The position numbers were made by a program, and so were the translations under genes. From a virus, in IMG/VR virus record IMGVR_UViG_3300029374_000001, positions 64,001 through 128,000 of that record: DNA of 64,000 bases; one strand, written 5' to 3'. Positions within the stretch are counted from its first letter, which is position 1, and each line of letters begins with the position of its first letter. The notes beneath the pieces are model-generated. The model was not told the DNA's origin, made no database searches, and was given only the letters and a program-made list of their open reading frames with translations. This document shows, in pieces, positions 15,305-60,703 of the stretch.

Positions 15305-15345
15305 CTCTATATTATATAATTTATAAAAGATTAGATTACAAAAAA
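15305..15345 (-). promoter_or_regulatory. promoter element copy 1 (minus-strand reading TTTTGTAATCTAA-N12-TATATAATATAGA)
   Basis: Invariant 13-mer at 15331..15343 (plus-strand TTAGATTACAAAA). Oriented towards the membrane-paralogue cluster. Confidence 0.5.
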
Positions 15346-15587
15346 GAAAATAACGTATATATAAGAGAGATAAACTATGACCAAATACACGAGCTCATGA
15401 ATAAAGTCCTCCCAGCTTATATTTAACCAAATATTAAATAAAGCTTTACGATTAATAATATAATACTCTCGTACCGTTTAAGTACTATACATATTAATCT
15501 TAGATACTTATAATTCATAACACCCCTTTCAGATACTACAATATGCGGGCATATCGATAATATCTAAAATATAGTTTATCTCTCATC

Positions 15588-15627
15588 CTTATAATATATA
15601 CTTTAAAAGAACTTAGATTACAAAAAT
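15588..15627 (-). promoter_or_regulatory. promoter element copy 2
   Basis: 13-mer at 15613..15625. Minus-strand reading TTTTTGTAATCTAA-GTTCTTTTAAAG-TATATATTATAAGG. Confidence 0.5.
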
Positions 15628-15864
15628 AAAAATAAGAAAGGTGTATATGACTTTAGAAAATAGTATTCCTCTACTTAAAATTTGTTTCTCTTTTTAGCCT
15701 AAAATAAGATACAGTTTGATAATGAGTAGTATAATACTTTCATATCGTTTAAGCACTATACATACTATATTTAAGTATTTGGAGTTCATATTATTCCTTT
15801 CAGATACTATGCGTCCATAAAAGTTTTATCATAATATCGAAAAGTCATATATACCTTTCTTATT

Positions 15865-15904
15865 TCTATAATATATGCTTTCAAAGAACTTAGATTACAA
15901 AATA
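15865..15904 (-). promoter_or_regulatory. promoter element copy 3
   Basis: 13-mer at 15890..15902. Minus-strand reading TTTTGTAATCTAA-GTTCTTTGAAAGC-ATATATTATAGA. Confidence 0.5.
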
Positions 15905-15910
15905 ATATAT

Positions 15911-15932
15911 GAGAAGCTCATATGAGCTTCTC
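15911..15932. terminator. perfect 22-nt palindromic hairpin GAGAAGCTCAT|ATGAGCTTCTC directly 3' of gene 15939..16595
   Basis: Read from sequence. On the minus strand it is followed by the A/T-rich ATATATTATTTTG. Confidence 0.5.
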
Positions 15933-15938
15933 ATATTC

Positions 15939-16595
15939 TTATGACTTTTTATGTTTTACTATTCTTATACTGATACGATTAGCTATCATGGATTGGCATT
16001 CTTTATTGGGATCTATATCCGTTGGCTCTATAGGAATCTTCCATCCAATATAATTATTCCATCTAAGCCTACCGTGGAAAAAAGTTAAATCAGCATAAAT
16101 CTTAAATGGTCTAAATAAAATACATTTAACTGATTTGTCTATATAGATATCTTTAGCTCTGCCATATTGATCTTCTTTATGATAAATATTCTTCATATCG
16201 ACCGGTTTTGCTTTGACTCCAAATACAAACTGAGCCCATCCATATGCACAATTTCTGGTTAACCATGCTACACGATTCAGATAACGTAAAAATCTTTCTT
16301 TTATAGTGAATGTGGCTCCTGGCTTGAGTGTAACGTATTTAACCCATTTACATATCTTAGGATCTAATCTTCTATGTACAGTATACTTCTCATAATAGTT
16401 ATATCTCATCCATTTAGGAGAATAATCTGTACACCAGTCTTCTGCATCACATGTATCATCCCAAGTTTGCCACAAATGTAAGAATCCTTTTAATTCTCCA
16501 CATTCATCACAAAATAGAGCGACAATCGGATTTGTTATATAACAAATCATCATAATAATCAACATACATGGTAAATACACAATATATCTAAGCAT
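15939..16595 (-). CDS. membrane protein (N-terminal TM), Cys/Trp-rich, hypothetical
   Basis: ORF track; GGAGGTG SD 10 nt upstream of ATG 16595. Confidence 0.55.
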   Translation of the reverse strand: MLRYIVYLPCMLIIMMICYITNPIVALFCDECGELKGFLHLWQTWDDTCDAEDWCTDYSPKWMRYNYYEKYTVHRRLDPKICKWVKYVTLKPGATFTIKERFLRYLNRVAWLTRNCAYGWAQFVFGVKAKPVDMKNIYHKEDQYGRAKDIYIDKSVKCILFRPFKIYADLTFFHGRLRWNNYIGWKIPIEPTDIDPNKECQSMIANRISIRIVKHKKS

Positions 16596-16899
16596 TCTCT
16601 ATAACACCTCCATAAAAAATAATTGGTATTATAAGAATGTCACAAAAAAATAATCCAGGTGACCTGACAGTCACCTGATATATTTCTGATTACTCTATGT
16701 GTCTTCAGAATCTCCTGGATTATTTTCTTAAAATTATATCGTTTGTTACTCTTCTATGAGCTATGTTACAATCATTCAACGATATCGGATAAATCTGTTC
16801 CTGTATCCCACATTTCCAGATCCACCTCCTTATTGTCTATACTCTATATAGACTTATAATAAGTATATAAAATATTACCTCTGAATATCTTATATACTC

Positions 16900-16942
16900 A
16901 GAGATATATTATATTATTTCAGAAAAATTAGATTACAAAATA
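16900..16942 (-). promoter_or_regulatory. promoter element copy 4 (upstream of 15939..16595)
   Basis: 13-mer at 16928..16940, with TAATATAATATATC 11 nt downstream on the minus strand. A hairpin CAGGTGAC-CTGACA-GTCACCTG (16646..16670) lies in the leader. Confidence 0.45.
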
Positions 16943-17200
16943 AAAAATAAAGAGAGTCAAAAGGAGTACAACTAAAAGCTCTCTTTATTTTTTCTGCCCT
17001 ATACTTATTAGGCAGCTTGGTGTGTGGAGACGAAGAGGGTATAATATGTACTACGTAGTTAAAATCAGTTTCCTTTTTGAGTTTGTTATAGAAGCCTCTG
17101 AATAGGCTTTAGTTCTCTCCCCCTCGGAAGCAGCTTTTATAACCGTAGTACATACTATTCTTTCTCATCTCGCTGATATAATATATAACTCAAAGAATAT

Positions 17201-17446
17201 TTATCTGGCATACTTTTTCTTCAAAGCAATAATCTTATCCATTTGTGTGGGTGTATACTTGTTTCTGGATAAATAGATCAATGCATTTGAATTAATCAAG
17301 GTATCTTTGAATACATTCATAGAGTTATTGAATTTCCCATCATCTCTGGAAATCATCATAGCATTTCTGGGATCAAATACTTCTTGTGCAGACTTCCAAA
17401 ATTCATCATTGACGATATAAATAATATTAAGTGTATCTCCATCGAA
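17201..17446 (-). CDS. RNA polymerase beta' subunit N-terminal fragment, exon 2 (starts FDGDTLNIIYIV...)
   Basis: Continues beta' homology after the catalytic motif: FDGDT..NAMMIS..NALIYLSR corresponds to E. coli DFDGDQMAVH..ALMMST..LGLYYMTR. Joined to exon 1 it gives AADFDGD. Confidence 0.75.
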   Translation of the reverse strand, partial: FDGDTLNIIYIVNDEFWKSAQEVFDPRNAMMISRDDGKFNNSMNVFKDTLINSNALIYLSRNKYTPTQMDKIIALKKKYAR

Positions 17447-17845
17447 CGTTGTGGTCAAATAGATTCGCTACATCTACCCAGTTCTCTTATGAACTTCTAT
17501 ATACTTTCATATACAGACCAGACTATATCACATCCATAATTGTATGGAGCCTTGCATTTCGAGTACGCTGTACTCTACACCCCGCGACGGGTTAGTCGTT
17601 GAACCTGTTTGAACAGGTGCTGATTGTCCATTTTCTCATTATACCCTTAGCAAATTAGATATATCTCTTTAATAAGTAAGATTTACATATATCTAACTCT
17701 TGTATTTCAGCATAGGTTATCTTATAAATCGTTTCTACTTTCGTAACCATATAGGTTTTGTAAGCTTTAGGAGTTTCCAGCTTTTAACAAGGTTACTCAC
17801 ACATGTTACCATATATGAGGACTTTTGTATTTTCTAAATACGTTA
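17447..17845 (-). ncRNA. group I self-splicing intron (399 nt, no internal ORF) interrupting the beta' gene inside the NADFDGD motif
   Basis: Exon 1 ends ...GCU GAU and the intron begins UAACG (an in-frame UAA, so splice after a U). The intron ends ...CACAACG (omega-G). Internal GUUCAACGACUAAC (R-like, 17589..17602 region) and GAUAUAGUCUGG (S-like) match the conserved group I core elements that pair as P7 (GACUA/UAGUC). The segment is locally GC-rich and structured. Confidence 0.8.
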
Positions 17846-19144
17846 ATCCGCAGCAAATGACGACAATACCTGTAATGGCATACCCATAGTATAATTATCA
17901 TTTATTCCGATACACTTCATAGCTTTGATGGAACCATAATCAATTGTCGGGTTCCTGTTAATAAGTACTGGTATACCACCATCGCTAGTCGCAATGATAT
18001 TTTCAATAATATCTCGGATTCGTTGATCGGGCACAATCTGAGCTTGTTTAAATCTCATATATGCATCATTATACCCAATATTATACGTTCGAACCAAGAT
18101 ATTGATGATTGTTTGTTGTAATAACTCTAAGAGTGTATGATAACTCAATGTGACTTGATTAACTCTTAGGGTTGGATCTGGAACAATAACAGACCGAGAT
18201 GTAAAACTACATCTGCCTCCTATCAGATTTCTTATAATACCTTTCTTACCAGAACAGATATTAACGACTTCTGTGTACAAAGCATTGTATCGATCCTGCA
18301 TATTCCATAGAATAACATTTCTGTATTTAGGAATGTTATACATAGACAACTTATCATTTCTAATCATAGCAGCAATCTTAGCCATCATATTAAAGATCGC
18401 ATTTGTTTCTTCAAAGGTAAATCTGGTTCCTTCTACTTTAAATGGTCGTAAACCTGTAGAATATACTGGTACATTATGAATGAATACTTTTTCTCTATTC
18501 TTCATAATGTCTTTATAGTAGTCTTCTTTCTTACCTTTGAATTTACTATGATAATATTCCATAATCTCATCAAACTTCTGTTCAAATTCAATGAGACCAA
18601 TACCTTTATAGGTATCGTCTAACTTTGTTTTTCTATATTTTCTTTTAGTCTGAGATTGAACTAACTTAGAACTATATTTTTGTATAGGATTTCCATTGGC
18701 ATCCAAATCAATCTCTGGTTGAATGATAGATTCTAATAGCTGTTGCCCTAAATACTTAGATAAAGACTGATAGATATTTGGATGAATGATAGCATACTTT
18801 CCAGTAGGAATCCATCCTGTAATACTGAAGTCTTCTCCAACGAACTTAACTTTAGTTCTACATCTAGGGCAAATCATTCCCTCATTATTTTTGCCCTGTA
18901 ATTCTTTACAATCACAAGAATATCGATCTGCATATGCATCGGGATCTTGTAATGTTTTCATATACTTTTCAGAATAAATCGAGTCGGATCTGGATAACGT
19001 TTTCTTAATATCCAATGGTTCGCTGATAATGAAACCTTTACCAGATTCCATATCTTTTTCTTTTTCTTTGTCTAAATCAATTCTCTCCAATCTTGTTGTA
19101 AATTTACATCCTTCTGGATATTTTACATTTAGATTGATTTCCAT
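17846..19144 (-). CDS. RNA polymerase beta' subunit N-terminal fragment, exon 1 (433 aa; Zn-ribbon and NRNPT.DYGS motif; ends ...SSFAAD)
   Basis: YSCDCKELQGKNNEGMICPRCRTKV corresponds to the beta' N-terminal zinc ribbon CxC..CxxC. LINRNPTIDYGSI corresponds to NR(Q/A)P(S/T)LH(R/K)xSI. The C-terminal AAD completes (N)ADFDGD with exon 2. Confidence 0.8.
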
Positions 19145-19222
19145 CCATACTCCTCCTTTTTGATAAAAATAAAAATGAGAAGACTGTAATTAGCCTTCTC
19201 ATAGCTATAATATATGGTTGAA

Positions 19223-19594
19223 TTAAGAATTGACATTAACAAAGTCAAACCAGAGTTCATTAGAATTTCCAGTATTGTCTTCCTCTTCTGCAATAATGTA
19301 TACAGGGTCATTATTCACACAGTATACACAATCCAAAACAGATGGTTGATCTTCTCTAGGAATATACACGTTAGCATGTTTCTTAAGAGGATCATCAATG
19401 TCAATCTTAATTCCTCTCTTACCAATATTCAATACGACATTATTGTTTACGTCAACCACTCTGATCAAATCATCAGAGACAATAACTTTCGTACCAAATT
19501 TAGAATTAACGACAATATCTTTATTAGATTCGGTTATTATATCTGGAGGGGTTGTACCCTCCAGATCCATCTTTTTATTTTTTATCTGCTGCAT
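19223..19594 (-). CDS. hypothetical protein
   Basis: Part of ORF 19223..19630. ATG 19594 with AGAAGGA SD 8 nt upstream. Confidence 0.45.
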   Translation of the reverse strand: MQQIKNKKMDLEGTTPPDIITESNKDIVVNSKFGTKVIVSDDLIRVVDVNNNVVLNIGKRGIKIDIDDPLKKHANVYIPREDQPSVLDCVYCVNNDPVYIIAEEEDNTGNSNELWFDFVNVNS

Positions 19595-19811
19595 TTGGTC
19601 TATCCTTCTTATTGGAATAATGAATATCAATATCTACCAAATCAGTTCCTTTTCTTTTAGAAACTGTGACTTCTGCGCCTTTATAAATGTCTTTCAGTGC
19701 AGATACAAGGGAATCTGTTATAGACTCCTCATTTTGTTTTTTGCCATTCCCAATCTCCTTAGTTACGGGTGTTTCAGGAATAGTAATTACGTCTTTTTTC
19801 TTATTCATCAT
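19575..19811 (-). CDS. hypothetical small basic protein
   Basis: ORF track; overlaps the neighbouring gene start by 20 nt. Confidence 0.35.
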   Translation of the reverse strand: MMNKKKDVITIPETPVTKEIGNGKKQNEESITDSLVSALKDIYKGAEVTVSKRKGTDLVDIDIHYSNKKDRPNAADKK

Positions 19812-20223
19812 AATTCTCCTTTAAATATTCTTCAAATAATGCTTGATCTTGGAAGCATTCGTCAGGCATCTTTTTAAAGATTTCTGGTACTGGAATATCT
19901 AATACTACATCTGAAGTGATACAGCTTCGAATGCTGATATGATCTTTATCGGAATATGGATCATATTCTGCATAGTAATAGCTTCCTTTATAATAAAATT
20001 GAGTATAATAATTCTCGGGATTAGAATAGAAATCATAAGCAAAACTCTTAAAATCTGTTTGAACTGAATTGGAATCTACCAAATCATGCTTCTTATTATA
20101 CTCTTCTACATATTCGTTAAACTTTCTCATATCTGTTAAGATATCATGTGGAATTGTTTTAAGTTCTTTTGGGGCTTTAATGGTACAAACAACTTCATGG
20201 TGTCCATCTTCGCAAATATCCAA
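19801..20223 (-). CDS. hypothetical protein (Tyr-rich)
   Basis: ORF track. Confidence 0.45.
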   Translation of the reverse strand: MDICEDGHHEVVCTIKAPKELKTIPHDILTDMRKFNEYVEEYNKKHDLVDSNSVQTDFKSFAYDFYSNPENYYTQFYYKGSYYYAEYDPYSDKDHISIRSCITSDVVLDIPVPEIFKKMPDECFQDQALFEEYLKENYDE

Positions 20224-20298
20224 ATAGTTATTATCTTCGTTATTCCAATGAGCGCACCATAGTTTATTATTATACCAATATGCAGTATGGAATCTTCT

Positions 20299-20802
20299 CT
20301 AATCACTAAACCAATTCTTTGCCAATAACTTAATTCCTTCTTCAGGAGTTTTGATCAATGCGTCATTAATATCTGAAATCATATTGATCGATATATTTCT
20401 GAGACTCATTGTATCGTCCATAGAAGTTTGAGTGTCATTGTTAACGATATCCATGGTACAATCATTCATAGATTCAATATCTATTTTATCATCATGAATA
20501 AATACAATTTCATCAAAGTTATCTGTACTAATCCGTATCTTACCATTCTTCTGGATGTTAATTATCTTTCCATCTCCAAAATCTACAGATACACCATCCA
20601 AAACAGGTTCAAACTTATTATTTGTTGTTTTAGGTACATAATCAAGTAAGATGTCTTCAGAATGTTTAGTCTTACCAGATTCAATATAATCATATATCTT
20701 ATGAATAGCTTCATCTTCTGTATCAGCAAAAACCTTATATCTCAAAGGCCTCTCTACCGCATCAACTTTATAAATTTTATTTATTTTGAATTGATCTTCC
20801 AT
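20299..20802 (-). CDS. hypothetical acidic protein
   Basis: ORF track; start overlaps the upstream gene end (translational coupling). Confidence 0.5.
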   Translation of the reverse strand: MEDQFKINKIYKVDAVERPLRYKVFADTEDEAIHKIYDYIESGKTKHSEDILLDYVPKTTNNKFEPVLDGVSVDFGDGKIINIQKNGKIRISTDNFDEIVFIHDDKIDIESMNDCTMDIVNNDTQTSMDDTMSLRNISINMISDINDALIKTPEEGIKLLAKNWFSD

Positions 20803-21170
20803 TTTTGAATCTCCTTATACTTAGTATCTCCATGCCTATAAATATAATATACGAATGCACACATCATACTTTTAGTAGGAATCTTCATTTGTTTACAAAT
20901 ATCAATGAACTTCTTCTGATCAAGATCTGTATCTAAAGGATTCACCAATACTTTCACTAAATTGACGGGATTATATTTAACAAACGCCTTATAAGATTTA
21001 TAGATTTCATCTATCTCTTCTATTGGTGTTCGGCATACTGCCCGTATAATATCTGTCAATAAAAATCCCGGTTGTCTCTGTATTTTGCCTATATAGATAT
21101 CAATCACTTTATCTAATATATCCATATCTACAGAGACATATTCCGGTATCTTATAAAGATTTCGAAGCAT
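20781..21170 (-). CDS. hypothetical protein
   Basis: ORF track; ATGA start/stop overlap with 21170..21745. Confidence 0.5.
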   Translation of the reverse strand: MLRNLYKIPEYVSVDMDILDKVIDIYIGKIQRQPGFLLTDIIRAVCRTPIEEIDEIYKSYKAFVKYNPVNLVKVLVNPLDTDLDQKKFIDICKQMKIPTKSMMCAFVYYIYRHGDTKYKEIQKWKINSK

Positions 21171-21745
21171 TATTCACCATCCCCATTAGTTGATTGATTT
21201 GGTTTCTGATGACGCATAGCATTCATTTTCAGCTTAATAAGCTCATTGGTAGTTTCTTTAGATTTCAAAGTATCTACCAAATGAGAAACAGCATTTGAAG
21301 CATCTGCTAATATGCGTTCTGTTGCTGTTTCCGGTTCTTTCTTAGGTAGTTCTTTACCACCGACATCATGCGAAGTAATACGCAAAACCCTATCCGAGAT
21401 TATTTCCCGTCCATCTCCATCTGCTATCGCAATTTCGATATTATCATTTGGAATAATAGCCCATTTCCGATTATAAGGAAGTCTTATAGTCATACGATCA
21501 TCAGAAACAATAGCCTCATAAATAAAGACTTGAATAGTTGGTAAATCAATATGATTCATTTGATCTGCTTTTTCTCTTTGTAAATTTGTGAATAAATCTT
21601 CTGTAACACTAGTTTTATATGGATTTGGAGTATCATTCCAATAATCAATAGCTGCTCTTTTAGCTTCTTCTACTCCAGTTGCGTTTCTTACATTTAAAAC
21701 TTCTCTTGTAGGAATTTTAACTAAACAAGATATAGATATCTCCAT
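21170..21745 (-). CDS. hypothetical protein
   Basis: ORF track. Confidence 0.5.
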   Translation of the reverse strand: MEISISCLVKIPTREVLNVRNATGVEEAKRAAIDYWNDTPNPYKTSVTEDLFTNLQREKADQMNHIDLPTIQVFIYEAIVSDDRMTIRLPYNRKWAIIPNDNIEIAIADGDGREIISDRVLRITSHDVGGKELPKKEPETATERILADASNAVSHLVDTLKSKETTNELIKLKMNAMRHQKPNQSTNGDGE

Positions 21746-21747
21746 GA

Positions 21748-22098
21748 TTATTTCTCCTTCTGTTCTAATACATACTTATCTACACTACCATCCGGTTTCT
21801 TAACCAGTACTTTATCCGGCAATATAACTACCTTTGGATCCTCTGCTCCTCCAATAATAGTAGAAGATTCTCCCACTAATAAAATACCATCTATATCCCA
21901 ACCCAAATCAAATACAACATGATCACCCCATTCTTGACCATATTCTACAGAAGCTTTCTTTTTAGCTTCTTCAATATTTTTTGCTTCTACTGTGAATCTA
22001 TGTAATTTAGATTCTGTTACTTCGACTTCATATACTCCATAATATTTGGATTCATATTCTTTTACAGCCTGTTCCATTTCATCATTAATGTTTTCCAT
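21748..22098 (-). CDS. hypothetical protein
   Basis: ORF track; 2-nt gap to the downstream gene. Confidence 0.5.
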   Translation of the reverse strand: MENINDEMEQAVKEYESKYYGVYEVEVTESKLHRFTVEAKNIEEAKKKASVEYGQEWGDHVVFDLGWDIDGILLVGESSTIIGGAEDPKVVILPDKVLVKKPDGSVDKYVLEQKEK

Positions 22099-22201
22099 AA
22101 TATTCTCTCCTTTTGTTTAAAACAAATATAAATATATAGATACTACCTATATAATATATAATTTCAATAGAATATATCCATAGCCAATATTGGCTATGGA
22201 T

Positions 22202-22450
22202 CTATCTCTTCATATATGGGAATATTCTATTTCCTATAGCATGATTAAATACATAAGCATATACTTGATCATCTTCTTGTAAAGGAATATTGACTTGTAT
22301 AGCTCTTGGACCTTTCATTAAAAACTCATCGCTATTTAATTTTCGTCCATTTAATTCTACTTCCATAATCCGTATATATTTCTGATGTATATAGGATTGA
22401 TCTATAAAGAATTCATTATTGATTCCTCTGGTTAATCTAAGTCGGTACAT
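22202..22450 (-). CDS. hypothetical small protein
   Basis: ORF track; overlaps 22432..23067 by 19 nt. Confidence 0.4.
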   Translation of the reverse strand: MYRLRLTRGINNEFFIDQSYIHQKYIRIMEVELNGRKLNSDEFLMKGPRAIQVNIPLQEDDQVYAYVFNHAIGNRIFPYMKR

Positions 22451-23067
22451 GATTTTACCTTTCTATTACTCATTACAATATCACAATTTAATGGAGAAAA
22501 TACTTCTTTGATATTTCTTCTCATAACTCGACAGCGATTGGTATAATTCGGATTGGATAAAATAAATTTCTCAAATTCCAAATAATTATCTTTCCATTCT
22601 TTACACATATCTGATTTAGGAATAGATCGATATAATAACGATACATGTTTATTCTTCCAAATATTATGATGTTTATGAGTTGTGCCATGATGGCATTCAT
22701 TATTATTTCTTTCTTTTTTGGCTTTACGACGCATTTCAGCAATTCTTGTATTTGGATATATGAATCCACATTTAATACATTTAAAGTCATATAGACGGTC
22801 ATTATATGTATTACGTCCGCATTCTCTTATAATCATATATCGATCTTCAATAACTTCTCCTATTCTATTTATACTAGAACGTATTCTATGATTACATTCA
22901 TTAGTGCATTTACAAATATACAGAAGTCTTTTATAAGTACAAATATTTATATACCCACATTTAATGCATCTAAACTTATATATGTTTTCATTAGTTGTTT
23001 GATCTATGGATACTATAGATTCTACCAGATATCTGTTATCAACAATTCCTCCTACATTAATTTCCAT
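22432..23067 (-). CDS. duplicated zinc-ribbon protein (two F[RK]CIKCG[YF]I CxxC repeats plus a His-rich segment), possibly a nucleic-acid-binding or nuclease-like protein
   Basis: Two ~45-aa internal repeats, each with CxxC...C.C; ECHHGTTHKHH segment. Function not assignable from sequence alone. Confidence 0.5.
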   Translation of the reverse strand: MEINVGGIVDNRYLVESIVSIDQTTNENIYKFRCIKCGYINICTYKRLLYICKCTNECNHRIRSSINRIGEVIEDRYMIIRECGRNTYNDRLYDFKCIKCGFIYPNTRIAEMRRKAKKERNNNECHHGTTHKHHNIWKNKHVSLLYRSIPKSDMCKEWKDNYLEFEKFILSNPNYTNRCRVMRRNIKEVFSPLNCDIVMSNRKVKSCTDLD

Positions 23068-23184
23068 TCCACTGTTCCTCCTATTAATTATTTTTAATTA
23101 TATGTATAATATATAATTAAAAGTTATAACAGATGTGTTTAAACACATCTGTTATAATATAAATAATTAATATATGAGTAAACA

Positions 23185-24438
23185 TTATTTTAAATTAAAT
23201 GCTTTATTTATATCTATATCATGTAGCTTAACAGTGGAATCATGAAAGGCCTTTAGGCTCAAAACTTTTAGTGTACTAGCAACCTGAGGTGCGGCTGTTC
23301 CGATGTTCTCATATCCTGCTCTATAAAACAAATTACCAGCACACGCATTACAGATTTGGTTATTGGTGTGATATTCACATAAAGAAGCAAATCTAAACTT
23401 TACTTTCTTATTCAGATATTTATCTAAATTTTCTGAAGTTAGTTCTACTAGTTTGTTTCCTTCTACTATATAAGAATACATCATCATATCCGCATACTGT
23501 TTGGTTAAAGTGATTTCTATTGTTCTTGAAGTCCCACAATCAGAGCCTTTTGGGGCTAGTGTTAAGTGCTGGAAGGCTCTAAGAAATAACTTCTCCCAGT
23601 ATCCACCTTTAGGGGTCTTTTTAGCTCTAGAATAAGGCCCTGCTGCTAATGAACGAGCCATAGCAGAATAATCTTCTTTTGATACGCCATCCATATAGTT
23701 AGATTTAACTACGGTATATCCTTTAGTAGGATCGGGATCTTTCATAGCGCCCTTCATTACAAAGATATTCTTAAAGTTATTAGAGAAAGATCCTTTAGCT
23801 TTAGAGTCATACATATCCATAGATACATCATTCTTTAGTTCTTGTTTAGCATAGTCTAATAATTCTTTCTCTATCTTATCTGCGGCATACATATTCTTCA
23901 TAGGATCAGCTAATTCATCTTTATATTGTTTGAAAAGCTGATCCTTCTTCTTATTGATCTTAGCAGACATATTCAGCATATTTGTAGTAAATCCAGAACA
24001 TAGGATATTACAATATGGCTGGAACTTCTGCTGTCTCATTAAATATCTCTTCAATACTTCTACAGCGATCTTATCTTCCATTAAAGCAAAAGACAACTTC
24101 TTATTTATATCACCCAATACATCATCATCAATTGGTTTATTGATATAATGGAAAAGATCAAACAAGTCTTGTTCTATGAATGTCTTATTCCACCACCATC
24201 TTCCTACTGTGGTAGTAAAAGAATTCTTATTCTTCTTATTTCCAGGACCATAAGAATTTGGTGGAATAGTAATGATATCATAGGTATGAAATCTAGGTTC
24301 TTTTCCATCTAGTGTGCCAAATGTTTCCATCATAGCAGATAGAGATTCTAATTGTAATTGTGATAGATTAAGAAAATAATCAATATCTTCTTTTTTCTTT
24401 ATAATCTTAGGAATTCTGACATTTGTTTTAGTAGCCAT
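23185..24438 (-). CDS. RNA polymerase beta' subunit middle fragment (F-loop, bridge helix, first half of trigger loop)
   Basis: [56 protein letters not shown] aligns to E. coli beta' [63 protein letters not shown] corresponds to DDCGTHEGI, and [18 protein letters not shown]..FH to the trigger-loop segment GEPGTQLTMRTFH. The gene ends within the trigger loop. Confidence 0.75.
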   Translation of the reverse strand: [417 protein letters not shown]

Positions 24439-41750: not shown

Positions 41751-41836
41751 ATGAGAATCTCAGTACTATATAGTACTGAGATCTTGTTTGTAATATAGTC
41801 CTATACATCTCTATAATATATAAGGAGGTTTTATAT

Positions 41837-45454: not shown

Positions 45455-45968
45455 TGGACATATCCTCTATTTCATCCATATTGTTCACAATCATTTGCGG
45501 ATCCATCGTTTCCATAATATACCATCTCTTATCTGCATAAAAGATCGGATAATACATAGCTGGCAATTCATCATGAACTTTTGTATTCACTAAATCATCC
45601 ACATCGTATACAATAGTACATCTATAGCCATATCGGCTATAGATGTAAGCGATTATACATTCTACGACATTCGATGCAAATGTATTCTGAAGATCGGTTA
45701 ATATAACTACATCTGGATTATAGTAATTATCCATCATGATATCCATAATTGCCATATGAGCACCATATGTATTCATATATCCCATATAAGATCTTCTGAA
45801 TTGTTCCATATCTTGCTCAATATAAAATTTTTGTATATCTGGTGGAGGTAATATATCCGAGTCTATTGATGATCCTATGGAGATTGTTGATAAGAAAGAC
45901 CTATAGAAATACTTATCTGTATTATCTCTCACATACCTCCACAATGATTGATCTGCAAAATATATCAT
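45444..45968 (-). CDS. hypothetical protein (174 aa)
   Basis: ORF track; overlaps both neighbours (operon-like coupling). Confidence 0.5.
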   Translation of the reverse strand: MIYFADQSLWRYVRDNTDKYFYRSFLSTISIGSSIDSDILPPPDIQKFYIEQDMEQFRRSYMGYMNTYGAHMAIMDIMMDNYYNPDVVILTDLQNTFASNVVECIIAYIYSRYGYRCTIVYDVDDLVNTKVHDELPAMYYPIFYADKRWYIMETMDPQMIVNNMDEIEDMSNGR

Positions 45969-46747: not shown

Positions 46748-46848
46748 TCCTCTCCTTTCATAATAATCATATTTAACACTCATCATTATAATATATAACA
46801 AAAAAGAAATTTGAGGATGGTTTAATATCCTCAAATTTCTCTTACTGT

Positions 46849-51184: not shown

Positions 51185-51907
51185 TTAGTCTTTGTTGATG
51201 AGCCGTGCATACTTACACATCACATCACTGGTTAAGAATCCCATGAATTGAAAATTTAAATGCGCATATTTCTCTTTGTCAAACTTTAGGCTGTCAAAGA
51301 CAACCTTTTTCAAATTATCCCTCGTCATATTATCGACAAACGTATTATAGTATGCCAGATAACATGCTATTTTCTGATCAATTGTACAATGGTTAATAAT
51401 ACTGAACTTATTAATCATATGAGTCAATTCTTTCGGTCTGCTCATATGAACATGAGCTTTGGTATGATATAGATTAATCGGAAGATCATTATCTACGATC
51501 ATACGCACAGCCGTTACAAACAGTTCTTTGTTAAGTATACCTTGGTTGGAGAATATCTTCACTTCACTATAGAATGATTGCGTCGAATTATTACTCCACC
51601 AATTGAATATCCACTTTCTTAATCCCAATATAGAAATCTCAGAATCTGAGAACAAATTGATTTGTGGCATATCCATGTTTTTCAAATTAAGCTGTCTCTT
51701 AATTTCAATAAGTGCACCCAGTGCCATAATAATAGCATACATTTCTCCGTAGTTTGAAGTTGTGTTATAGAAAATTCTATTGACAGATTTGATAATTTTA
51801 TTTTTATATACTATTGCATATCCTGGGGAACTTACTGTTCGATTATCGCTCTTTGTTGTACTGGCGTCAGTAAATACATCGAGCGAACCATCTAAGTTAA
51901 GTTCCAT
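51185..51907 (-). CDS. ribonuclease H (RNase H1-like)
   Basis: Canonical catalytic-residue pattern: D in VFTDAS, E in NYGEMYAI, D in LFSDSE, YHTKAH...; AAAGGAGA SD. Confidence 0.7.
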   Translation of the reverse strand: MELNLDGSLDVFTDASTTKSDNRTVSSPGYAIVYKNKIIKSVNRIFYNTTSNYGEMYAIIMALGALIEIKRQLNLKNMDMPQINLFSDSEISILGLRKWIFNWWSNNSTQSFYSEVKIFSNQGILNKELFVTAVRMIVDNDLPINLYHTKAHVHMSRPKELTHMINKFSIINHCTIDQKIACYLAYYNTFVDNMTRDNLKKVVFDSLKFDKEKYAHLNFQFMGFLTSDVMCKYARLINKD

Positions 51908-51912: not shown

Positions 51913-52287
51913 TTATTTCTCCTTTCCTTCCTCTCTGGATAATAATATATCTTTATAGGTGGATTTATCCAGGTCTTCTTTCTTTAAAATATCTCCAAAC
52001 GCGTTCATCAATAGCGTTTGGTTGCTTTGTATTGCTACAAAATCATCCTCAGACATTGTAGCTAATTGATTTTTTATTAATGCGCTCATAATCATCAAAA
52101 ATTCATTAACGTCGTGAATAGAATGGAAGTAGCCGCCATAAGCAGCTACTTCATTTAAATCTATTTTATTATCTTTAACGTTTTCTTGATTCTTGATGAA
52201 AATAGCAGCTCGTAACTTAGGATTACAATCTTTGCATGTTTTCATAATTTCCATAGCAATAGATCCTAATAAAGCTCTATTTTTCAT
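51913..52287 (-). CDS. hypothetical protein
   Basis: Part of ORF 51913..52326. Start at ATG 52287 with AAAGGAGAAGATTAT SD. Confidence 0.45.
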   Translation of the reverse strand: MKNRALLGSIAMEIMKTCKDCNPKLRAAIFIKNQENVKDNKIDLNEVAAYGGYFHSIHDVNEFLMIMSALIKNQLATMSEDDFVAIQSNQTLLMNAFGDILKKEDLDKSTYKDILLSREEGKEK

Positions 52288-53640: not shown

Positions 53641-53826
53641 TTATCCGACTTTCCAATTCTTTCTTAACTTAGTTATTTCTTCTCTTAAAGAAATAGCTTT
53701 AGCTGACATAGGGTGAGCATGAAGCCGATTAATCAGTTTCAAATATTCATCCTCTTTGGAATGAATATAATCTTCCATCTCGGCTTTAACTGATAATACC
53801 GGAACACCTTCTCTAATGACTAACAT
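53641..53826 (-). CDS. hypothetical small protein
   Basis: Part of ORF 53641..53859. Start at ATG 53826, 7 nt after GGAAGGAGA. Confidence 0.4.
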   Translation of the reverse strand: MLVIREGVPVLSVKAEMEDYIHSKEDEYLKLINRLHAHPMSAKAISLREEITKLRKNWKVG

Positions 53827-53890
53827 TGCCATTCTCCTTCCTGATACTTTCCGTATCATAGAAAATATATAGATTAATATTTACTTTCAC

Positions 53891-53929
53891 TCATATAGTA
53901 TATAAGTTAAAATAAATTAGATTACAAAT
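53891..53929 (-). promoter_or_regulatory. promoter element copy 5
   Basis: Plus-strand TTAGATTACAAA at 53916..53927, with TATATACTATATG 12 nt downstream on the minus strand. Upstream of gene 53641..53826. Confidence 0.45.
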
Positions 53930-54006: not shown

Positions 54007-54186
54007 CTATGATAAGAGTATATCTTGTGCTTTGACAAGATTACTTAACAAGGTAATCTTGAAAGCGAGAATACACTCGTGATTATCTGGCGTATCTTTA
54101 ATCAATTTTAGATTTTCTAAAGCATCTTTCAGATATCCAGAAAACCAAAGAGCATATTCTTTGGAATTAATGTCTTTAGTAATCAT
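54007..54186 (-). CDS. 59-aa hypothetical protein (MITKDINSKEYALWFSGYLKDALENLKLIKDTPDNHECILAFKITLLSNLVKAQDILLS)
   Basis: Hand-translated codon by codon; AAAGGAGA SD 7 nt upstream of ATG 54186. Below the track size cutoff. Confidence 0.35.
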   Translation of the reverse strand: MITKDINSKEYALWFSGYLKDALENLKLIKDTPDNHECILAFKITLLSNLVKAQDILLS

Positions 54187-54290
54187 ACGTATTCTCCTTT
54201 CGAGGCTTATAAGATTACACAGCTATAAAATCTTATAAGTCATATATTTGATATGGGAGAGATAGCCGGTAACTATCTCTTCCCTCTATC

Positions 54291-54333
54291 AAATATATAA
54301 TATATGATTTAGAAAATCTTAGATTACAAAAAA
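54291..54333 (-). promoter_or_regulatory. promoter element copy 6
   Basis: Plus-strand TTAGATTACAAAA at 54319..54331. Followed on the minus strand by the hairpin TTTGATA-TGGGAGAGATAG-CCGGTAA-CTATCTCTTCCC-TC-TATCAAA (54247..54298) in the leader. Confidence 0.45.
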
Positions 54334-54343: not shown

Positions 54344-54371
54344 TTCCCATAGACCATATGGTCTATGGGAA
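54344..54371 (-). terminator. perfect 28-nt palindromic hairpin TTCCCATAGACCAT|ATGGTCTATGGGAA, followed on the minus strand by ACTTTTGTTTTTTG
   Basis: Directly 3' of gene 54386..54907 and immediately upstream of promoter copy 6. Confidence 0.55.
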
Positions 54372-55174: not shown

Positions 55175-55203
55175 TTACAATGTAGTTATCGAACACTTAT
55201 ATA
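55175..55203 (+). promoter_or_regulatory. sigma70/sigmaA-like promoter TTACAA-N17-TATATA upstream of the beta-subunit gene
   Basis: -35-like hexamer at 55175..55180, 17-nt spacer, -10-like hexamer at 55198..55203, about 40 nt upstream of ATG 55243. Same TTGTAA-N17-TATATA architecture as the minus-strand elements but without the full 13-mer. Confidence 0.4.
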
Positions 55204-55242
55204 AATTTTCATATTATTTTCAAATGAAAGGATATGTGCTAT

Positions 55243-58200
55243 ATGGCAACATCTATTGAAAAACTTGTTCCTCTTCGTTTGATGAAGACCAAACTTAAAT
55301 ACCCTACAGATCTTAAAGATCGTTATAAGGGTAGTGTTGTCTTCTTACTGACAAAATCTATAGATGGTTCTATAGACTTCTTAAATACCAATCAGTTCTT
55401 AGTGAATAATAAAACATTCTTGTCTTATTATATAGAGAAAGACTATACGTTTTATTTAGAATCTGCCGAAGAACCAAGAGATCATATGGTTGATTCTGTA
55501 TTAGAATCCTCTATGGGAGAACTCAATACTCAATATAATAATATATATGTGAAATCTGATTCAGCTACCTCTTTCTATCCAGATGCAGCACAATTGATTG
55601 CTATGAATGAAGATTTCGGAATCAATCAAAATTATCCCAATATATTTAGACGATTCTTATATAACGAACGCATCAAAAATCAAAAAGAAGCTATGACTCT
55701 TTATAAGAAGATCAAAGCTTCTATTGATTGGATTAAGTATACATACATTAATCTTTCTATCTATAAAAGAAAGAACTTAATTGTCGATTGGTCATATTAT
55801 GCAAATCTGTTCTTTAAGAATAATGAATTATATATCAGAGATAAAGGAATTGATCTGTTACATCATATGATGACAAGATATCTGAATGATGCTAGATTAA
55901 CTAATGAAGGATATAGCAGAAAGACAGTTATTATTCCAGTCAACGAATGGTGCAATGGAATCGAAGATAAAGTATTATTTGACTTTACTAAAAATATCAA
56001 TCCATTCTCTATGATCTTCCGTTTAACCAAACAAAAGAAAATATTCCCAAATGAATGGGAAGGAATTGATTTTATCGTTTGCTCTAAGAATGCTTATTTC
56101 AAAATAGACTTAAATAATTTCAGCATCAAAGAACTGGTTAGGTTTGTATACTTAACCAAGAAGTTAATTGCTAATGAAATTGCCGATGCAGATACAACGG
56201 ATGATGAAGAAACCATTGTAACTTCCGGATTAACCCAGAATAAAGAATTGTCTGGTAAAGATACAGAATATGTAACAGTCAAAGTTTCTGATGATGAAAA
56301 GAAAGAAGAAATTGTTGACGTTGCTCCAGAGCATAAAGAACCTATCGTTAACCCTGATGAAGACTGGTTAAAATCTGTCGTTGCTGATTTAGATGAGAAT
56401 TCTAAAGATACAGTCAAGATCAATGAAGCTAGACAAAAACGTATGGAAGAATTAGACAAGACATACGATAATACAGAAATTCATGGTAAGAAAGTTAAAA
56501 CAATCTTAGAGAACTACTATACCAAAGACAGATCTTTGAAGTCCGAACCTATTCCGATTGACTCTATCAATGAAGAATGGAAAAATATATCTTCATTAAA
56601 CTTAGAGAAGTCATACGATATTGATGAAGATATTGTTGCTATTCTTAAATCATTCCGATATAAATCCAGACCATTATCTATTGTATCTATGAAGATGGAA
56701 GATACTTCGACCAATATGGACTATGTCAATACATTGACTGTAGTAATGGAAGATGCTTATGGAACCAGATCCACTATTAAATTGGATATTCCTAAGTTTA
56801 TCAATCATCGGTTTATGAAACTAAGAGGAAACTTAAAAACTATTGCTGGTCAGTTAATCTTAATGCCTATCATTAAAACAGATGAAGATACAGCACAGAT
56901 TGTTACCTCTTATCATAAGATCTTTATTTACAGAATCAATCCATCCAATGGTTCTAAATCAACCAAAGGGGTATCTAAGCTAACCAAAGCTCTAAGTAAA
57001 CTAAATACAATAACTTCTAAATTGGAAGTATTTGAAGGAGATAATAGTTTTATCTGTTCTAAATATGAATTGCCAATCGAATATAGAGATTTGGCTGGTT
57101 TGTATTCCAGAATCAATTTAGGAGATGGAAGTTATGTGACGTTTGATTATGATAAAGCATTACAGCTTCCTACTGATAATAAGTATGATCAAGCAAAGCA
57201 TATTATATTTGGCTTTGATAATAAAACTAAGAAAGCAGTATATGGAGATAAAGAAAGATTATCTTTTGATATTGGAAATTTCTTAGCTTCTAAAGATAAA
57301 GCTTTTGGCGATCTCTATGTAAGTACAGTACCGTCTAATAAACTTTCTTATTCTGAAGCATCTATTATGAATACGGATATTCCTGTAATTATTTTGATGG
57401 CTTTCAGTGAAGGTTTACAGAAAGCGATGGATAAATCTAAGATTAAATATCGCTTCTCTGAAAAGAGACCAAAAGCAACAGATACAGAATCTGTTATTCG
57501 TTTTTCTGATGGATACATCATATACAATGATGAACACCCAGAAGATTCTCTATTAATGACTGGATTGACTAAGTGTGATTTGAGTTCCTATTCTATTAAA
57601 GATATTAATAGCAAATCTATGTGGTTAGATATCTTGGATGACTTTGGCGGACGTATCAAAGCAGATGGTTTAGATAACTTCTATGATTGCGAATTTGACC
57701 CTATGTCTATTGATATCTGTAAGAGAAAGAAGATTCCCTATGATTATATAGAAGCTTTAGCCTATGCTAATAAACTCTTAGCTTCTACGGAATATAACAA
57801 GCATGCTGATATTTCTGGAAATAGAATTAGAACTAATGAAATCTTAGCAGGATACTTATATCAAGTATTGGCTAATGCCTATGGAGATTATGCCAGCAAG
57901 TCTAAGAGAGTGGGTAAAGGAGTTAAACTCTCTATTAAACAATCTGCGTTAATAGATGCTCTTATGAAAGATCCCGGATTCTCCGATTTATCTGTGTCTT
58001 CTCCTTTATTAGAAGCAGAAGCTGCTACATCTGCATCGTTTAAAGGATTGTCTGGTATGAATGCGGATAGAGCATATACCTTAGATAAACGAGTATATGA
58101 TGAATCTATGCTTGGTATTCTGGGAGCATCTACAGGGTTTGCAGGTAATGTTGGTATTACCAGACCAATGACTATCAATGCGTCTATTCAGAATAGCAGA

Positions 58201-59535
58201 GGATTAATGGATCCTAAAAGGCCAAAAGATCTGAATACATTAAATACGTTAACTATATATGAAGCATTGACTCCTTATGCTACTACCCATGATGATCCTA
58301 TTCGTACAGCTATGGGATTTGTTCAGACAGTTAAACACCAGATGAGAGTTAAATCTTCTTCTCCCAGTTTAATTACATATGGCATGGATGAAGCTCTTCC
58401 TTACTTTACAACCGATATATTCTCCCATAAATTCAAAGGAGTTAAAGGCAAAGTATTAGACGTCAATGATGAATTTATTATTTATGAAACTATTGATGAA
58501 GATGGAAATAAATCAAAAGAATTTGTTGATTTGTCCGATCATACAATGAAGAACTCAGATGGTGGTTTCTATGTCACAGTTAAATTAAAGCCACAGGTTA
58601 AGAAGGGTCAAACTCTAAAGAAGAATGATATCTTAGCCTATGACCCAACTTCATATTCTCCCACTGTAGCTTCTGATAAGAATTCTAAAAATATTGCTTA
58701 TAATGCTGGTACATTAGCAAAGATCGCTATTATGTGTACTGATGAAGCATATGAAGATTCTTCTATTATCAATACAAGATTAGTAGATGCATTAACTTCA
58801 TTCTATGTAGTAGAAAAATTGTGTTCTTTAGATGCACACTCTAATGTATTCTCTTTAGCAGAAATTGGTAAACCTATTCAAGAAGGATCTCCTTTAATTG
58901 TATTCCAGAATGCATTTGAAGAAGAAGATGCTAATAAACTTCTTAAGAATATCAATGATGAAGAATTAGATGCTATTACAGATTTTGGTCGTATTCAAGT
59001 TCATTCTAAATTAACTGGTATATTACAAGATATCAAGATTAGAAGAACATGTGAACTTTCCGATCTGTCTCCATCATTAAAGAAGATTGTTACTCAATAT
59101 GAAAACGGTATTAAAGCTAAAAAGAAAAAGCTCTTATCTGCTGGAGTAAATCCAATAGAAGTAGAATCTATGTTAGAATCTACAGAAAAGATGCTTCCTG
59201 AGGGTAAACTGAAAAACACACCAAATGGTGTTATGTTTGAATTCTATATCAAATGTAGAGATAAAATGGGTGTAGGAGATAAGTTAACCTATAATACAGC
59301 CATCAAAGGTGTTGTTAAGGATATTATACCAGATGGTAAAGATCCTTATACAGATTTCAGAAAGAATGAACCTATTGATGCTTTATTAACTTCTGCATCC
59401 GTTAATGCTCGTATGGTTCCCTCTGTTATGATCTCTGGGGCTTTGAATAAAGTCTTAATTGAATTATCTAGACAATGTAAAGAAAAGTTAGGTATTCAGT
59501 GGACTAACTTAGAAAACAAAAACAATTTAGATTAA
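55243..59535 (+). CDS. RNA polymerase beta subunit, highly divergent (1430 aa)
   Basis: [29 protein letters not shown] corresponds to beta ..[41 protein letters not shown] corresponds to GDKLAGRHGNKGVISKI.P. Start chosen at ATG 55243 (MATSIEKL). Confidence 0.7.
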   Translation: [1430 protein letters not shown]

Positions 59536-59573
59536 TACATTCTAATAACCAACTGAAGATAGCGAGTTTCTTA

Positions 59574-59599
59574 GGGTATACGGAATATTCCGTATACCC
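59574..59599 (+). terminator. perfect 26-nt palindromic hairpin GGGTATACGGAAT|ATTCCGTATACCC, 40 nt after the beta gene stop
   Basis: Read from sequence; no clear U-run. Confidence 0.45.
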
Positions 59600-59803
59600 A
59601 TTCGCTCGTCAAAAGGCCGCATTTCATTTCTAACATATTAGTAAAGGCTTTTGTATCTCTGATCATACCCGTCCATATATGATTATATACAATTGTCTAA
59701 AATTTCATAAATTTCCTCTTCTTGAAAATTTGTTTTCTCCTTATAATTCACTGTACTTTCTCCGGTACAGTGAATTATACCGCCAATATTACAATAAAAG
59801 ATC

Positions 59804-59825
59804 CCATAGCTCCTATGAGCTATGG
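59804..59825 (-). terminator. hairpin CCATAGCTC-CTAT-GAGCTATGG, followed on the minus strand by GATCTTTTATTG
   Basis: 3' end of the minus-strand small-membrane-peptide block 59830..60300. Confidence 0.45.
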
Positions 59826-59981
59826 AACTTATCTATTTAACAAGTACGATAATTGCTCCTACAATAAATACAGAGCATATTAATCCTGCCATATATTCTG
59901 GCATAACAACACCTAAGATTACATTCATAAATATAGATACCAGAATAACCACTACACATAGTAATATCTTTATGATATTTC

Positions 59982-60167
59982 CTATTCCCATAATTTACCA
60001 CCACACTTCATGATATCATAAAATGCATACAATGAGCTAACTAAGTAAACGACAAATAAACATCCTGCAATTCCATATCTGTCATACGTTAAGCAATATG
60101 CAGAACAACTTCCGCATATGATGGACAATAGAATGCAAAGTATGCTAACCAATATTCTACAATGCAT
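59982..60167 (-). CDS. small Cys-rich membrane protein (61 aa)
   Basis: ORF track; hydrophobic. Neighbouring tiny hydrophobic minus-strand ORFs (e.g. MPEYMAGLICSVFIVGAIIVLVK near 59833..59904) suggest a cluster of membrane peptides. Confidence 0.35.
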   Translation of the reverse strand: MHCRILVSILCILLSIICGSCSAYCLTYDRYGIAGCLFVVYLVSSLYAFYDIMKCGGKLWE

Positions 60168-60376
60168 AATTTATAACCTCCTAACCTATCCAGTTATAAA
60201 GTATATATAACAATAATCCGAAGATCATACAAGCACAGTATTCATTCGTATATTTATTATTCATCATAATAAAAATCTCCTTATGATTACATAGAAATAT
60301 TCAGAGCAATATAGTGTTCGGATATTGTCTACAAGAAAATGGACGGGCTATAAGGGTTATAAAAAATAAAAAAATA

Positions 60377-60408
60377 AAGAGCTTTTAAAAGCTCTTTATT
60401 TTTTTATT
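60377..60408. terminator. bidirectional rho-independent terminator AAAGAGC-TTTTAAAA-GCTCTTT flanked by an A-run and a T-run
   Basis: Read from sequence; stem-loop plus ATTTTTTTATT; adjacent to the stop of gene 60407..60601. Confidence 0.6.
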
Positions 60409-60601
60409 AGCGAAACAGATCAATTACAACAAATAGAGATATAATTGCTGCTTTCAAACCAAGAACAATACATGCTGCCCAATCGCCAAGTTTACATAAA
60501 ACATTAATACCCTGTTTATGAGCTTGATCATAGAAATGAACACACCAATCCAGATCAATCAATACGATTGCAATTAATACAAAATACTGCCACCATTTCA
60601 T
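60407..60601 (-). CDS. small membrane protein (MKWWQYFVLIAIVLIDLDW...)
   Basis: Part of ORF 60407..60631. ATG 60601 with AAAAGGAGGA SD 8 nt upstream. Confidence 0.5.
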   Translation of the reverse strand: MKWWQYFVLIAIVLIDLDWCVHFYDQAHKQGINVLCKLGDWAACIVLGLKAAIISLFVVIDLFR

Positions 60602-60663
60602 TTTTAAGTCCTCCTTTTGACTTGTTACCATTAGATGATATGATTTATCATTTCTTATTCATC

Positions 60664-60703
60664 TCTATAATATATAATTTATCAAAAGTTAGATTACAAA
60701 ATG
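60664..60703 (-). promoter_or_regulatory. promoter element copy 7
   Basis: Plus-strand TTAGATTACAAAA at 60689..60701. Minus-strand reading TTTTGTAATCTAA-CTTTTGATAAAT-TATATATTATAGAG, about 60 nt upstream of ATG 60601. Confidence 0.5.

Follow-up and report, generated by a model that had tools for sequence, protein, structure and literature searches.

Candidate bipartite early promoters in an uncultured phage: a strictly spaced 13-mer upstream of an AT-rich core

What is the role of a long and nearly invariant DNA word that recurs in front of a scattered set of very small viral genes? The question is raised by a stretch of 64,000 nucleotides (positions 64,001 to 128,000 of IMG/VR virus record IMGVR_UViG_3300029374_000001), referred to herein as the window and numbered from its first letter, in which a 13-mer, TTAGATTACAAAA on the plus strand and TTTTGTAATCTAA on the minus strand, is found repeatedly upstream of minus-strand open reading frames (ORFs). 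We propose that the seven sites are bipartite promoters of an AR9-type jumbo phage, in which a core for the virion RNA polymerase (vRNAP) is combined with an upstream 13-mer that belongs to an early subclass firing first, a reading that we consider probable rather than assured. A motif of fixed geometry, its conservation and its genomic context can be read directly from the DNA and are described first, followed by the comparison with phage AR9 on which the functional part of the proposal depends.

The 13-mer and its distance to an AT-rich core

There are six exact copies of TTAGATTACAAAA in the window, all on the plus strand, at 15331, 15613, 15890, 16928, 54319 and 60689, where only 0.02 copies are expected, and none of 100 dinucleotide-preserving shuffles reached six. 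The initial annotation had counted seven invariant copies, which is correct for these six; the seventh lies at 53917-53929 rather than at 53916 and has one mismatch (TTAGATTACAAAT), and the part that is invariant across all seven is the 12-mer TTTGTAATCTAA (minus strand). The complete minus-strand unit comprises TTTTGTAATCTAA at -41 to -29, a spacer of 12 nt, the block (T/C/A)ATATA(T/A/C)TATA at -16 to -6, 5 nt, and a G that is taken as +1. Counted from the 12-mer, it is exactly 13 nt to ATATA(T/A/C)TATA, followed by 5 nt and the G. Hence the spacer after the 13-mer is strictly 12 nt in all copies and not the 12 or 13 nt given previously, and the AT-rich block, while present as claimed, has a broader consensus than TATATA(T/A)TATA. 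The G is conserved in six of the seven copies, that at 15890 having an A, and a multiple alignment shows that the copies have only the conserved blocks in common, as both the flanks and the 12-nt spacer differ. The seven sites are:

15302..15343, minus strand: P15331, with the 13-mer TTTTGTAATCTAA at 15331-15343, core TATATAATATA and predicted start G 15302; predicted to drive a 38-aa hydrophobic ORF (15114-15230) and then 14493-15095
15584..15625, minus strand: P15613, predicted start G 15584; 31-aa ORF 15423-15518 with a leader of 66 nt
15861..15902, minus strand: P15890, predicted start A 15861; predicted to drive the paralogous 31-aa ORF 15694-15789, and adjoined by the palindromic terminator hairpin 15907-15936
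16899..16940, minus strand: P16928, predicted start G 16899; downstream are a 5' hairpin (16876-16906), a 13-aa ORF (16772-16813), a terminator-like hairpin (16655-16678) and a DUF7338 gene (15939-16595)
53888..53929, minus strand: P53917, variant ATTTGTAATCTAA, core TATATACTATA, predicted start G 53888; predicted to drive a ~63-aa ORF (53641-53832, the start chosen being the one with a ribosome-binding site, RBS)
54290..54331, minus strand: P54319, predicted start G 54290; predicted to drive a 59-aa ORF (54007-54186), with the palindromic terminator hairpin 54344-54371 directly upstream and a 5' hairpin (54250-54290) that begins at +1
60660..60701, minus strand: P60689, predicted start G 60660; predicted to drive a ~64-aa membrane-like ORF (60407-60601)

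All seven copies fall outside ORFs of at least 50 aa, for which the probability is ~2e-6 given an intergenic fraction of 0.152, and each is 5' of a minus-strand ORF that has a Shine-Dalgarno site, the leader, counted from the conserved G, being 56-104 nt long. The intergenic placement, the orientation toward minus-strand genes and the leader length (initially put at 50-200 nt) therefore hold as first described. Of the early-type promoters that can be recognised in the window, about half carry the 13-mer.

The motif is retained in other members of the same phage family. A pattern scan of IMG/VR contigs, which reports every exact match, located the bipartite motif in 50 loci of this family, including a 260-kb contig, IMGVR_UViG_3300045988_113656, and a 216-kb contig that are ~92-98% identical to the window where aligned, fragments derived from the Human Microbiome Project (HMP), and others that are 76-84% identical. 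The samples in which these contigs occur are HMP 7000000238, HMP 7000000431 and 3300045988. The 260-kb contig contains 13 copies, 11 of which are on one strand. The 67-71 instances found in these relatives form 38 flank-distinct groups in which the flanks vary and positions that were unforced by the search are conserved, namely A-6 (38/38 groups), G+1 (36/38) and T-1 (35/38), together with T-24, T-23 and A-19. When up to one mismatch is allowed, there are 80 unique occurrences of the 12-mer, 67 of which are followed by the core at exactly the distance described; the other 13 are all one-mismatch words, and every exact 12-mer has the core in that place. Three of the window copies belong to a tandem array (15302-15936) with a period of 277-283 bp and paralogous 31-aa ORFs, and a whole unit has been inserted or deleted among the relatives, since this region contains four 13-mers in the window and in L029, and three in L017 and L030.

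The core, the AR9 early promoter and the upstream element

The window has a GC content of ~32%, and a megablast search with positions 14000-20000 gave no nucleotide match among cultured phages. Its proteins include some that resemble the beta and beta' subunits of RNA polymerase (RNAP), and the 1433-aa member is nearest (tblastn, ~30% identity) to those of AR9/PBS1, phiR1-37 and Staphylococcus S6-type jumbo phages. A local tblastn comparison with AR9, whose DNA contains uracil and which encodes both a vRNAP and a non-virion enzyme (nvRNAP), gave the following assignments:

55234-59535, plus strand: homologue of AR9 g189 (vRNAP beta)
23185-24438, minus strand: homologue of AR9 g264 (vRNAP subunit)
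17843-19144, minus strand: homologue of AR9 g270 (nvRNAP beta' N-terminus)
51185-51907, minus strand: homologue of AR9 g241 (RNase H)

Homologues of the virion and of the non-virion multisubunit RNAP are both encoded, with part of each subunit set falling within the 64-kb window, and therefore the DNA appears to come from a new, deep-branching, low-GC AR9-like jumbo phage that has two RNA polymerases of its own. A transfer RNA scan found none, and Rfam searches of the whole window at the gathering threshold and of 15000-18000 at an E-value threshold gave nothing credible, with the leaders and a putative intron (see below) remaining unmatched.

The early promoters of AR9, which are those used by its vRNAP, have the consensus AAATATATATTAT-(6N)-G+1, with starts mapped by differential RNA sequencing and primer extension (Lavysh et al., 2017, PMC5312081), and AR9 early transcription does not depend on protein synthesis (PMC5312081). 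Numbered from the conserved G, the motif in the window reads A-19 A-18 T-17 T-16 A-15 T-14 A-13 T-12 A-11 T-10 T-9 A-8 T-7, which is the AR9 consensus at 12 of the 13 positions between -19 and -7, without any shift of register and with TATTAT again followed, 6 nt on, by the G start; the difference is at -17, which is A in AR9 and T here. AR9-type traits thus extend from a conserved AT-rich element near -10 and a G start (at the level of sequence) to the presence of two RNAPs and placement at early genes. Moreover, AR9 g270 and g241 have early promoters and their homologues in the window also carry the core, and therefore these orthologous genes seem to have retained their promoter type. The sites resemble AR9 early promoters in being intergenic and co-oriented with short early operons in a phage with homologous vRNAP and nvRNAP subunits, but they differ in that an upstream element is absent from the AR9 consensus as published and in that the element is longer here, at 12-13 invariant bases. 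By homology, transcription from the seven sites would depend on the vRNAP and would start at the conserved G. The initial view that these are a phage-specific promoter class, most likely early and read by the phage's own RNAP, is thus supported by the AR9 match of the core and by the vRNAP and nvRNAP homologues, in both cases through comparison.

The same core also occurs at other intergenic sites that do not have the 13-mer. The promoter itself thus appears to be the AT-rich core, to which the 13-mer is added, as an accessory element on the upstream side, in one subclass. These sites, which usually have a terminator hairpin and a T-run on their upstream side, are:

19200..19215, minus strand: core-only promoter ATATATTATAGCTATG, without the 13-mer, directly 5' of the nvRNAP beta' N-terminal homologue (17843-19144)
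51935..51950, minus strand: core-only promoter 5' of the RNase H homologue (51185-51907)
22144..22159, minus strand: core-only promoter after terminator hairpin 22176-22201 and 5' of 21748-22098
23099..23114, minus strand: core-only promoter after terminator hairpin 23124-23157 and 5' of 22432-23067
46781..46796, minus strand: core-only promoter after a hairpin and T-run and 5' of the gene in 45965-46834
17171..17186, minus strand: core-only promoter followed by ~220 nt without an ORF (17171 to ~16950) that end just before P16928

If the 13-mer marks a subclass, a counterpart might be found among the AR9 promoters themselves. We extracted these from the AR9 genome (KU878088) and compared them with Table S2 of the AR9 study, which lists 39 early promoters where the text counts 41 (PMC5312081). 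Ten of the 39 carry CGTATTAAA, that is, CGTAT(T/C)(A/G)AA, at -38 to -30 and exactly 10 nt 5' of AAATATATATTAT; these are the promoters of g047, g048, g069, g108, g120, g169, g190, g234, g253 and g292, the last of which wraps across the ends of the record. The element sites in AR9 include:

39437-39445, 39689-39697, 56740-56748 and 85555-85563 of KU878088: upstream element
94758 (minus strand), 139387-139395, 201678-201686, 213831-213839 and the record start (minus strand) of KU878088: further upstream elements

The bases common to the AR9 element and the 13-mer are G-37, T-36, A-35, T-33 and A-30. The timing of the AR9 promoters was assessed from the ratio of first-gene FPKM (fragments per kilobase per million) at 5 and 20 min in Table S4 of the same study, which reports RNA-seq at three time points (PMC5312081). 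The median 5-min/20-min ratio is 1.16 for the 10 promoters with the element and 0.21 for 28 without it (Mann-Whitney p=1.6e-5), and the first gene peaks at 5 min for six of the 10 compared with none of the 28 (Fisher p=7.6e-5). All eight of the published 'pre-early' genes of AR9 (g048, g109, g111, g120, g169, g235, g289 and g292) are in operons that follow element-bearing promoters. The AR9 paper gives no motif for this group (PMC5312081), and no relevant paper was found when the two element sequences were searched for as text. We treat the association between element and timing as a lead, and by analogy the 13-mer promoters of the window may likewise be pre-early.

Evidence for an upstream element at the same position is also found beyond AR9 and the immediate relatives. 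A scan of viral contigs with a pattern of the core only gave at least 119 loci, from unrelated contigs, and 238 sites with core and G among the matches listed. Among these listed matches, TGTAA occurs at -38 in 16 of the 238 sites and at any other offset in two at most, GTA occurs at -37 in 24 sites over a background of ~3-4, and for contigs of 140 kb or more TGTAA at -38 is found in 14 of 73 sites, compared with 2 of 165 for smaller ones (p=1.7e-6). The contigs with TGTAA at -38 show only weak similarity to the family of the window. As a control on spacing, matches to TGTAAAA-N16-ATATATTAT were compared with those to the corresponding N18 pattern by their internal properties, namely A-6 together with G+1, multiple hits per locus, and contig size. 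Among the matches listed, A-6 and G+1 occur together in 32 of 127 sites with N16 and in 12 of 120 with N18 (p=0.0014), and five loci have multiple hits with N16 and none with N18; the N16 sites share a long consensus. A group of jumbo-sized contigs (L091, L099, L115, L158, L163, L235, L238, L240, L241 and others) has the long bipartite consensus TGTAAAA(a/g)gnta..aTTTCAATTATATATTATAnnnnTG, with the geometry of the window motif and another upstream word.

A proposed mechanism and the alternatives to it

In the mechanism that we propose, the injected vRNAP would recognise the core ATATA(T/A/C)TATA at -15 to -6, and the core would direct melting and initiation at the G, while the 13-mer TTTTGTAATCTAA at -41 to -29 would provide a further contact, locked in phase with the first, and would set apart an immediate-early subclass. 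It could be read by the vRNAP complex or by a virion-borne specificity factor, in a two-point recognition like that of -35/-10 promoters, and direct contact of the 13-mer by the vRNAP complex is put forward here as a hypothesis. Such promoters would fire first ('pre-early') and express short, insulated units, each consisting in order of a terminator hairpin, the promoter, a 5'-terminal hairpin and a small ORFan or membrane-like protein. Recognition inside a phage initiation complex is favoured by the fixed distance, the single orientation, the non-palindromic nature of the element, its position across phages, and its restriction to jumbo-sized contigs. More tentatively, and with somewhat less confidence than would make it probable, we suggest that a block centred on G-37 T-36 A-35 may be a general second promoter element of the sigma-less vRNAPs of AR9-like jumbo phages that marks the pre-early subclass, with many of the uncultured jumbo phages having TGTAA, AR9 having CGTATTAAA and the window TTTTGTAATCTAA. 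If so, the injected polymerase complex would contain a specificity determinant that, like sigma, reads the DNA at two points.

Several points weigh against this proposal. For the start site, vRNAP dependence and timing we rely on AR9, and its RNAP subunits have only ~30-36% identity with those encoded here, and the AR9 element agrees with the 13-mer at only five of nine positions. The AR9 correlation is itself a reanalysis of one published three-time-point RNA-seq table, and missing late promoters or differences in RNA stability, and not the upstream element, could underlie the timing. The uniformity of the 13-mer may in part be due to promoter cassettes that were duplicated or gene-converted, given that three copies are in a tandem array, and sequence alone cannot separate contact by RNAP from binding of a separate factor. 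Short-query blastn searches against cultured phages pointed to Staphylococcus jumbo phages. One of these, the cultured phage MarsHill, was sampled over 21 kb; the core was found there, among other places before the nvRNAP beta gene, but TGTAA was not seen at -38. The extension of the upstream element to the Staphylococcus jumbo phages was dropped for that reason.

A different role for the 13-mer would be that of an operator for a separate phage regulator, either an early repressor or a MotA-like activator carried in the virion, placed beside a vRNAP core promoter that is sufficient in itself. The presence of the core at other sites without the 13-mer is compatible with this, as are the 13 invariant bases, which are typical of a dedicated DNA-binding protein, and in AR9 the transcripts from element-bearing promoters drop after 5 min when other early ones are still rising, which resembles active shut-off. 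Because of these kinetics a separate regulator on the 13-mer, and especially a shut-off repressor, is plausible. However, the element is non-palindromic and keeps one orientation and one exact distance to the core in ~70 instances as well as in other phages, which suits a contact inside the initiation complex better, the earliest timing cannot be due to an activator that is synthesised after infection, and no candidate regulator was identified, so that the operator explanation as a whole seems to us unlikely. The 13-mer might alternatively have no function of its own and be maintained mainly as a component of a terminator-promoter cassette that was recently duplicated or gene-converted and that mediates recombination, comparable to the early promoter stem-loop (PeSL) units of T4-like phages. 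The 277-283-bp array with its paralogous 31-aa ORFs, the relatives that differ by exactly one unit (four copies versus three), and the longer block of hairpin, promoter, 5' hairpin and RBS shared by many of the relatives' copies would all be expected in that case. Yet among the seven window copies the 12-mer is invariant where flanks and spacer differ, the element is unchanged in relatives that are only 76-84% identical, and TGTAA at the same position in unrelated contigs, as well as GTA in AR9, points to selection on the sequence itself; we regard a purely cassette-based origin as very improbable.

Host transcription must also be considered, as some jumbo phages rely on host RNAP early in infection. 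The sites could then be strong early promoters for the host sigma-A enzyme, used before the phage enzymes, with TTGTAA as the -35 element and an AT-rich -10 element. TTGTAA agrees with TTGACA at four of six positions, TATATA is 17 bp 3' of it, and TATTAT at -12 to -7 is a near-consensus -10 hexamer that is correctly placed relative to the conserved G. The two readings are mutually exclusive, however, because the hexamer at 17 bp (TATATA, CATATA or AATATA) lacks the invariant final T and the TATTAT that is in register is 21 bp from TTGTAA, and the sigma-A-type -35/-10 geometry noted in the initial annotation is in this sense superficial. None of the four 13-mer copies in 11000-24000 is among the best 60 of 63 sites reported there by a sigma-70 scanner, and such sites are not enriched in that region (63 found, 74.8 expected). 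In addition, the invariant ATCTAA, A-15, T-14, A-13, A-6 and T-1 lie outside the sigma-A contacts, the register is identical to that of AR9 vRNAP promoters in a phage whose early transcription needs no host-dependent steps, and TGTAA at -38 is, among the matches listed, confined to jumbo-sized contigs and not general in AT-rich phages. A host sigma-A promoter is improbable on these grounds, chiefly the missing final T at 17 bp, the 21-bp distance of TATTAT and the lack of copies among the listed sigma-70 sites. A Bacteroidetes-type -33/-7 promoter was rejected, as there is no TAnnTTTG and the phage has strong Shine-Dalgarno sites. A bipartite promoter for the phage vRNAP is the reading that we retain as the most probable.

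Predicted transcription units of the window and comparison with known systems

The predicted transcripts have structured 5' ends. The region +1 to +45 is more structured than shuffled sequences (mean z -2.8), 37% of these segments fold at -10 kcal/mol or below compared with 7% of random 45-mers, and in 45% a hairpin starts within nucleotides 1-3 of the transcript. Terminator hairpins adjoin two of the seven window copies (15907-15936 and 54344-54371) and most copies in the relatives. The hairpins at the predicted +1 (19175-19202, minus strand, and many other loci) are often followed by a T-run and so look like intrinsic terminators ~30 nt from the transcript start. Such hairpins may stabilise the 5' end, or be attenuators to which the phage polymerase does not respond.

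The first ORF has a median length of 57 aa behind 13-mer promoters and 120 aa behind core-only promoters (p=0.011). Those behind the 13-mer are ORFans, and searches of these small ORFs against PHROGs and Pfam gave no families and a sub-threshold CrgA-like match for 60407-60601. A paralogous family of 57-60 aa, which includes 54007-54186 (minus strand), is encoded at several genome positions (L005, L010, L016, L022 and L023), each copy with its own 13-mer promoter and 5' hairpin; the family has no database matches, and its C-terminus is ...NLVK(T/I/A)QD(I/Y/T)(I/L)LE(S/A) in most copies and ...NLVKAQDILLS in the window copy. Two further units near P16928 are almost devoid of coding sequence. 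The ~245-nt unit that starts at P16928 (16655-16899, minus strand) has as its sole ORF the 13-aa one at 16772-16813, which is preceded by a strong RBS, and the ~220-nt ORF-less unit (16950-17171, minus strand) behind the core-only promoter at 17171 contains long-range complementary segments. These units may be small RNAs or leader peptides.

The plus-strand element TTACAA-N17-TATATA before the beta gene, which was initially thought to be related to the 13-mer motif, is indeed present (55175-55203, before the 1433-aa RNAP gene), but kinship is the less likely interpretation, as it contains the AR9 late-promoter consensus AACA-N6-TA (55192-55203, plus strand). That consensus is not matched by the 13-mer sites. 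AR9 g189 is a late vRNAP gene and its homologue is the 1433-aa RNAP gene of the window; the plus-strand element before it is more likely to belong to another class of promoters than to be kin to the 13-mer motif. AACA-N6-TA also occurs at 31462-31473 and 34152-34163 (both minus strand), in short spacers just past terminator hairpins. All three sites are 31-50 nt 5' of presumptive virion genes, encoding a 1980-aa protein, a 96-aa ORF before a 2226-aa virion protein, and the vRNAP beta homologue, with the motif being too short for statistics.

The nvRNAP beta' N-terminal homologue is split (17201-19144, minus strand) into 433-aa and 85-aa ORFs, which align to successive parts of a single PHROG profile and are ~384 nt apart. 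The segment 17446-17952 ranges from ~0.46 to 1.1 kb among the relatives. The break is near the position of the group I intron with an HNH gene in AR9 g270, and Rfam finds no intron model here. A long minus-strand run of virion genes is interrupted at 41019-42505 by two ORFs on the plus strand (243 and 222 aa); they may be a mobile insertion, and the former has a weak match to an HNH-endonuclease PHROG. Between them and on the opposite strand is a core match, ATATATTATAGAGATG (41806-41821), which was treated as chance because the 5' leader in which it falls belongs to a gene of the opposite orientation.

The vRNAPs of jumbo phages have no known sigma homologue, and their published early consensus is a single AT-rich block of ~10 nt near -10 (PMC7598289, PMC13282480). 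A discrete, subclass-specific block of 12-13 nt at -41 to -29 has no description that we could find in the literature searched. A second, strictly spaced upstream element would be a concrete and mutable target for in vitro work, and it could account for the 'pre-early' kinetics that were left open by the AR9 study. The bipartite pattern might also serve, in uncultured jumbo phages, as a cheap marker of immediate-early genes (those for host takeover or anti-defence), which are tiny ORFans there and escape annotation.

In its general design the motif resembles the sigma-70/sigma-A promoters and the MotA-box promoters of T4, which also have two blocks at a fixed distance with the downstream one being AT-rich and -10-like. 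T4 middle promoters have a phage-specific upstream box in place of the -35 element. The spacing and conserved bases found here do not fit sigma-A, however, and the sequence of the 13-mer is unlike the MotA box. The early promoters of phiKZ and 201phi2-1 are likewise AT-rich near -10 and read by an injected vRNAP, with conservation in the -10, -20 and -30 regions (PMC11512511), but the sequences are different, conservation there applies to the whole early class with no discrete subclass block at -41 to -29, and these phages are nucleus-forming, infect Gram-negative hosts and are only distantly related. In the arrangement of units there is some likeness to the PeSL cassettes of T4-like phages (PMC2839356, PMC4122927), in which a stem-loop terminator is likewise fused to an early promoter and repeated between small variable genes. 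The likeness extends to insertion or deletion of whole units between close relatives, and the indel in the tandem array, being bounded by promoter repeats, recalls PeSL-mediated shuffling, although a role in recombination rests here on one copy-number difference. The terminator-promoter-hairpin arrangement may thus promote the gain and loss of units, which would not explain the invariance of the 12-mer. PeSL promoters are of the host sigma-70 early type, whereas those described herein are, by their resemblance to AR9, of the jumbo-phage vRNAP type.

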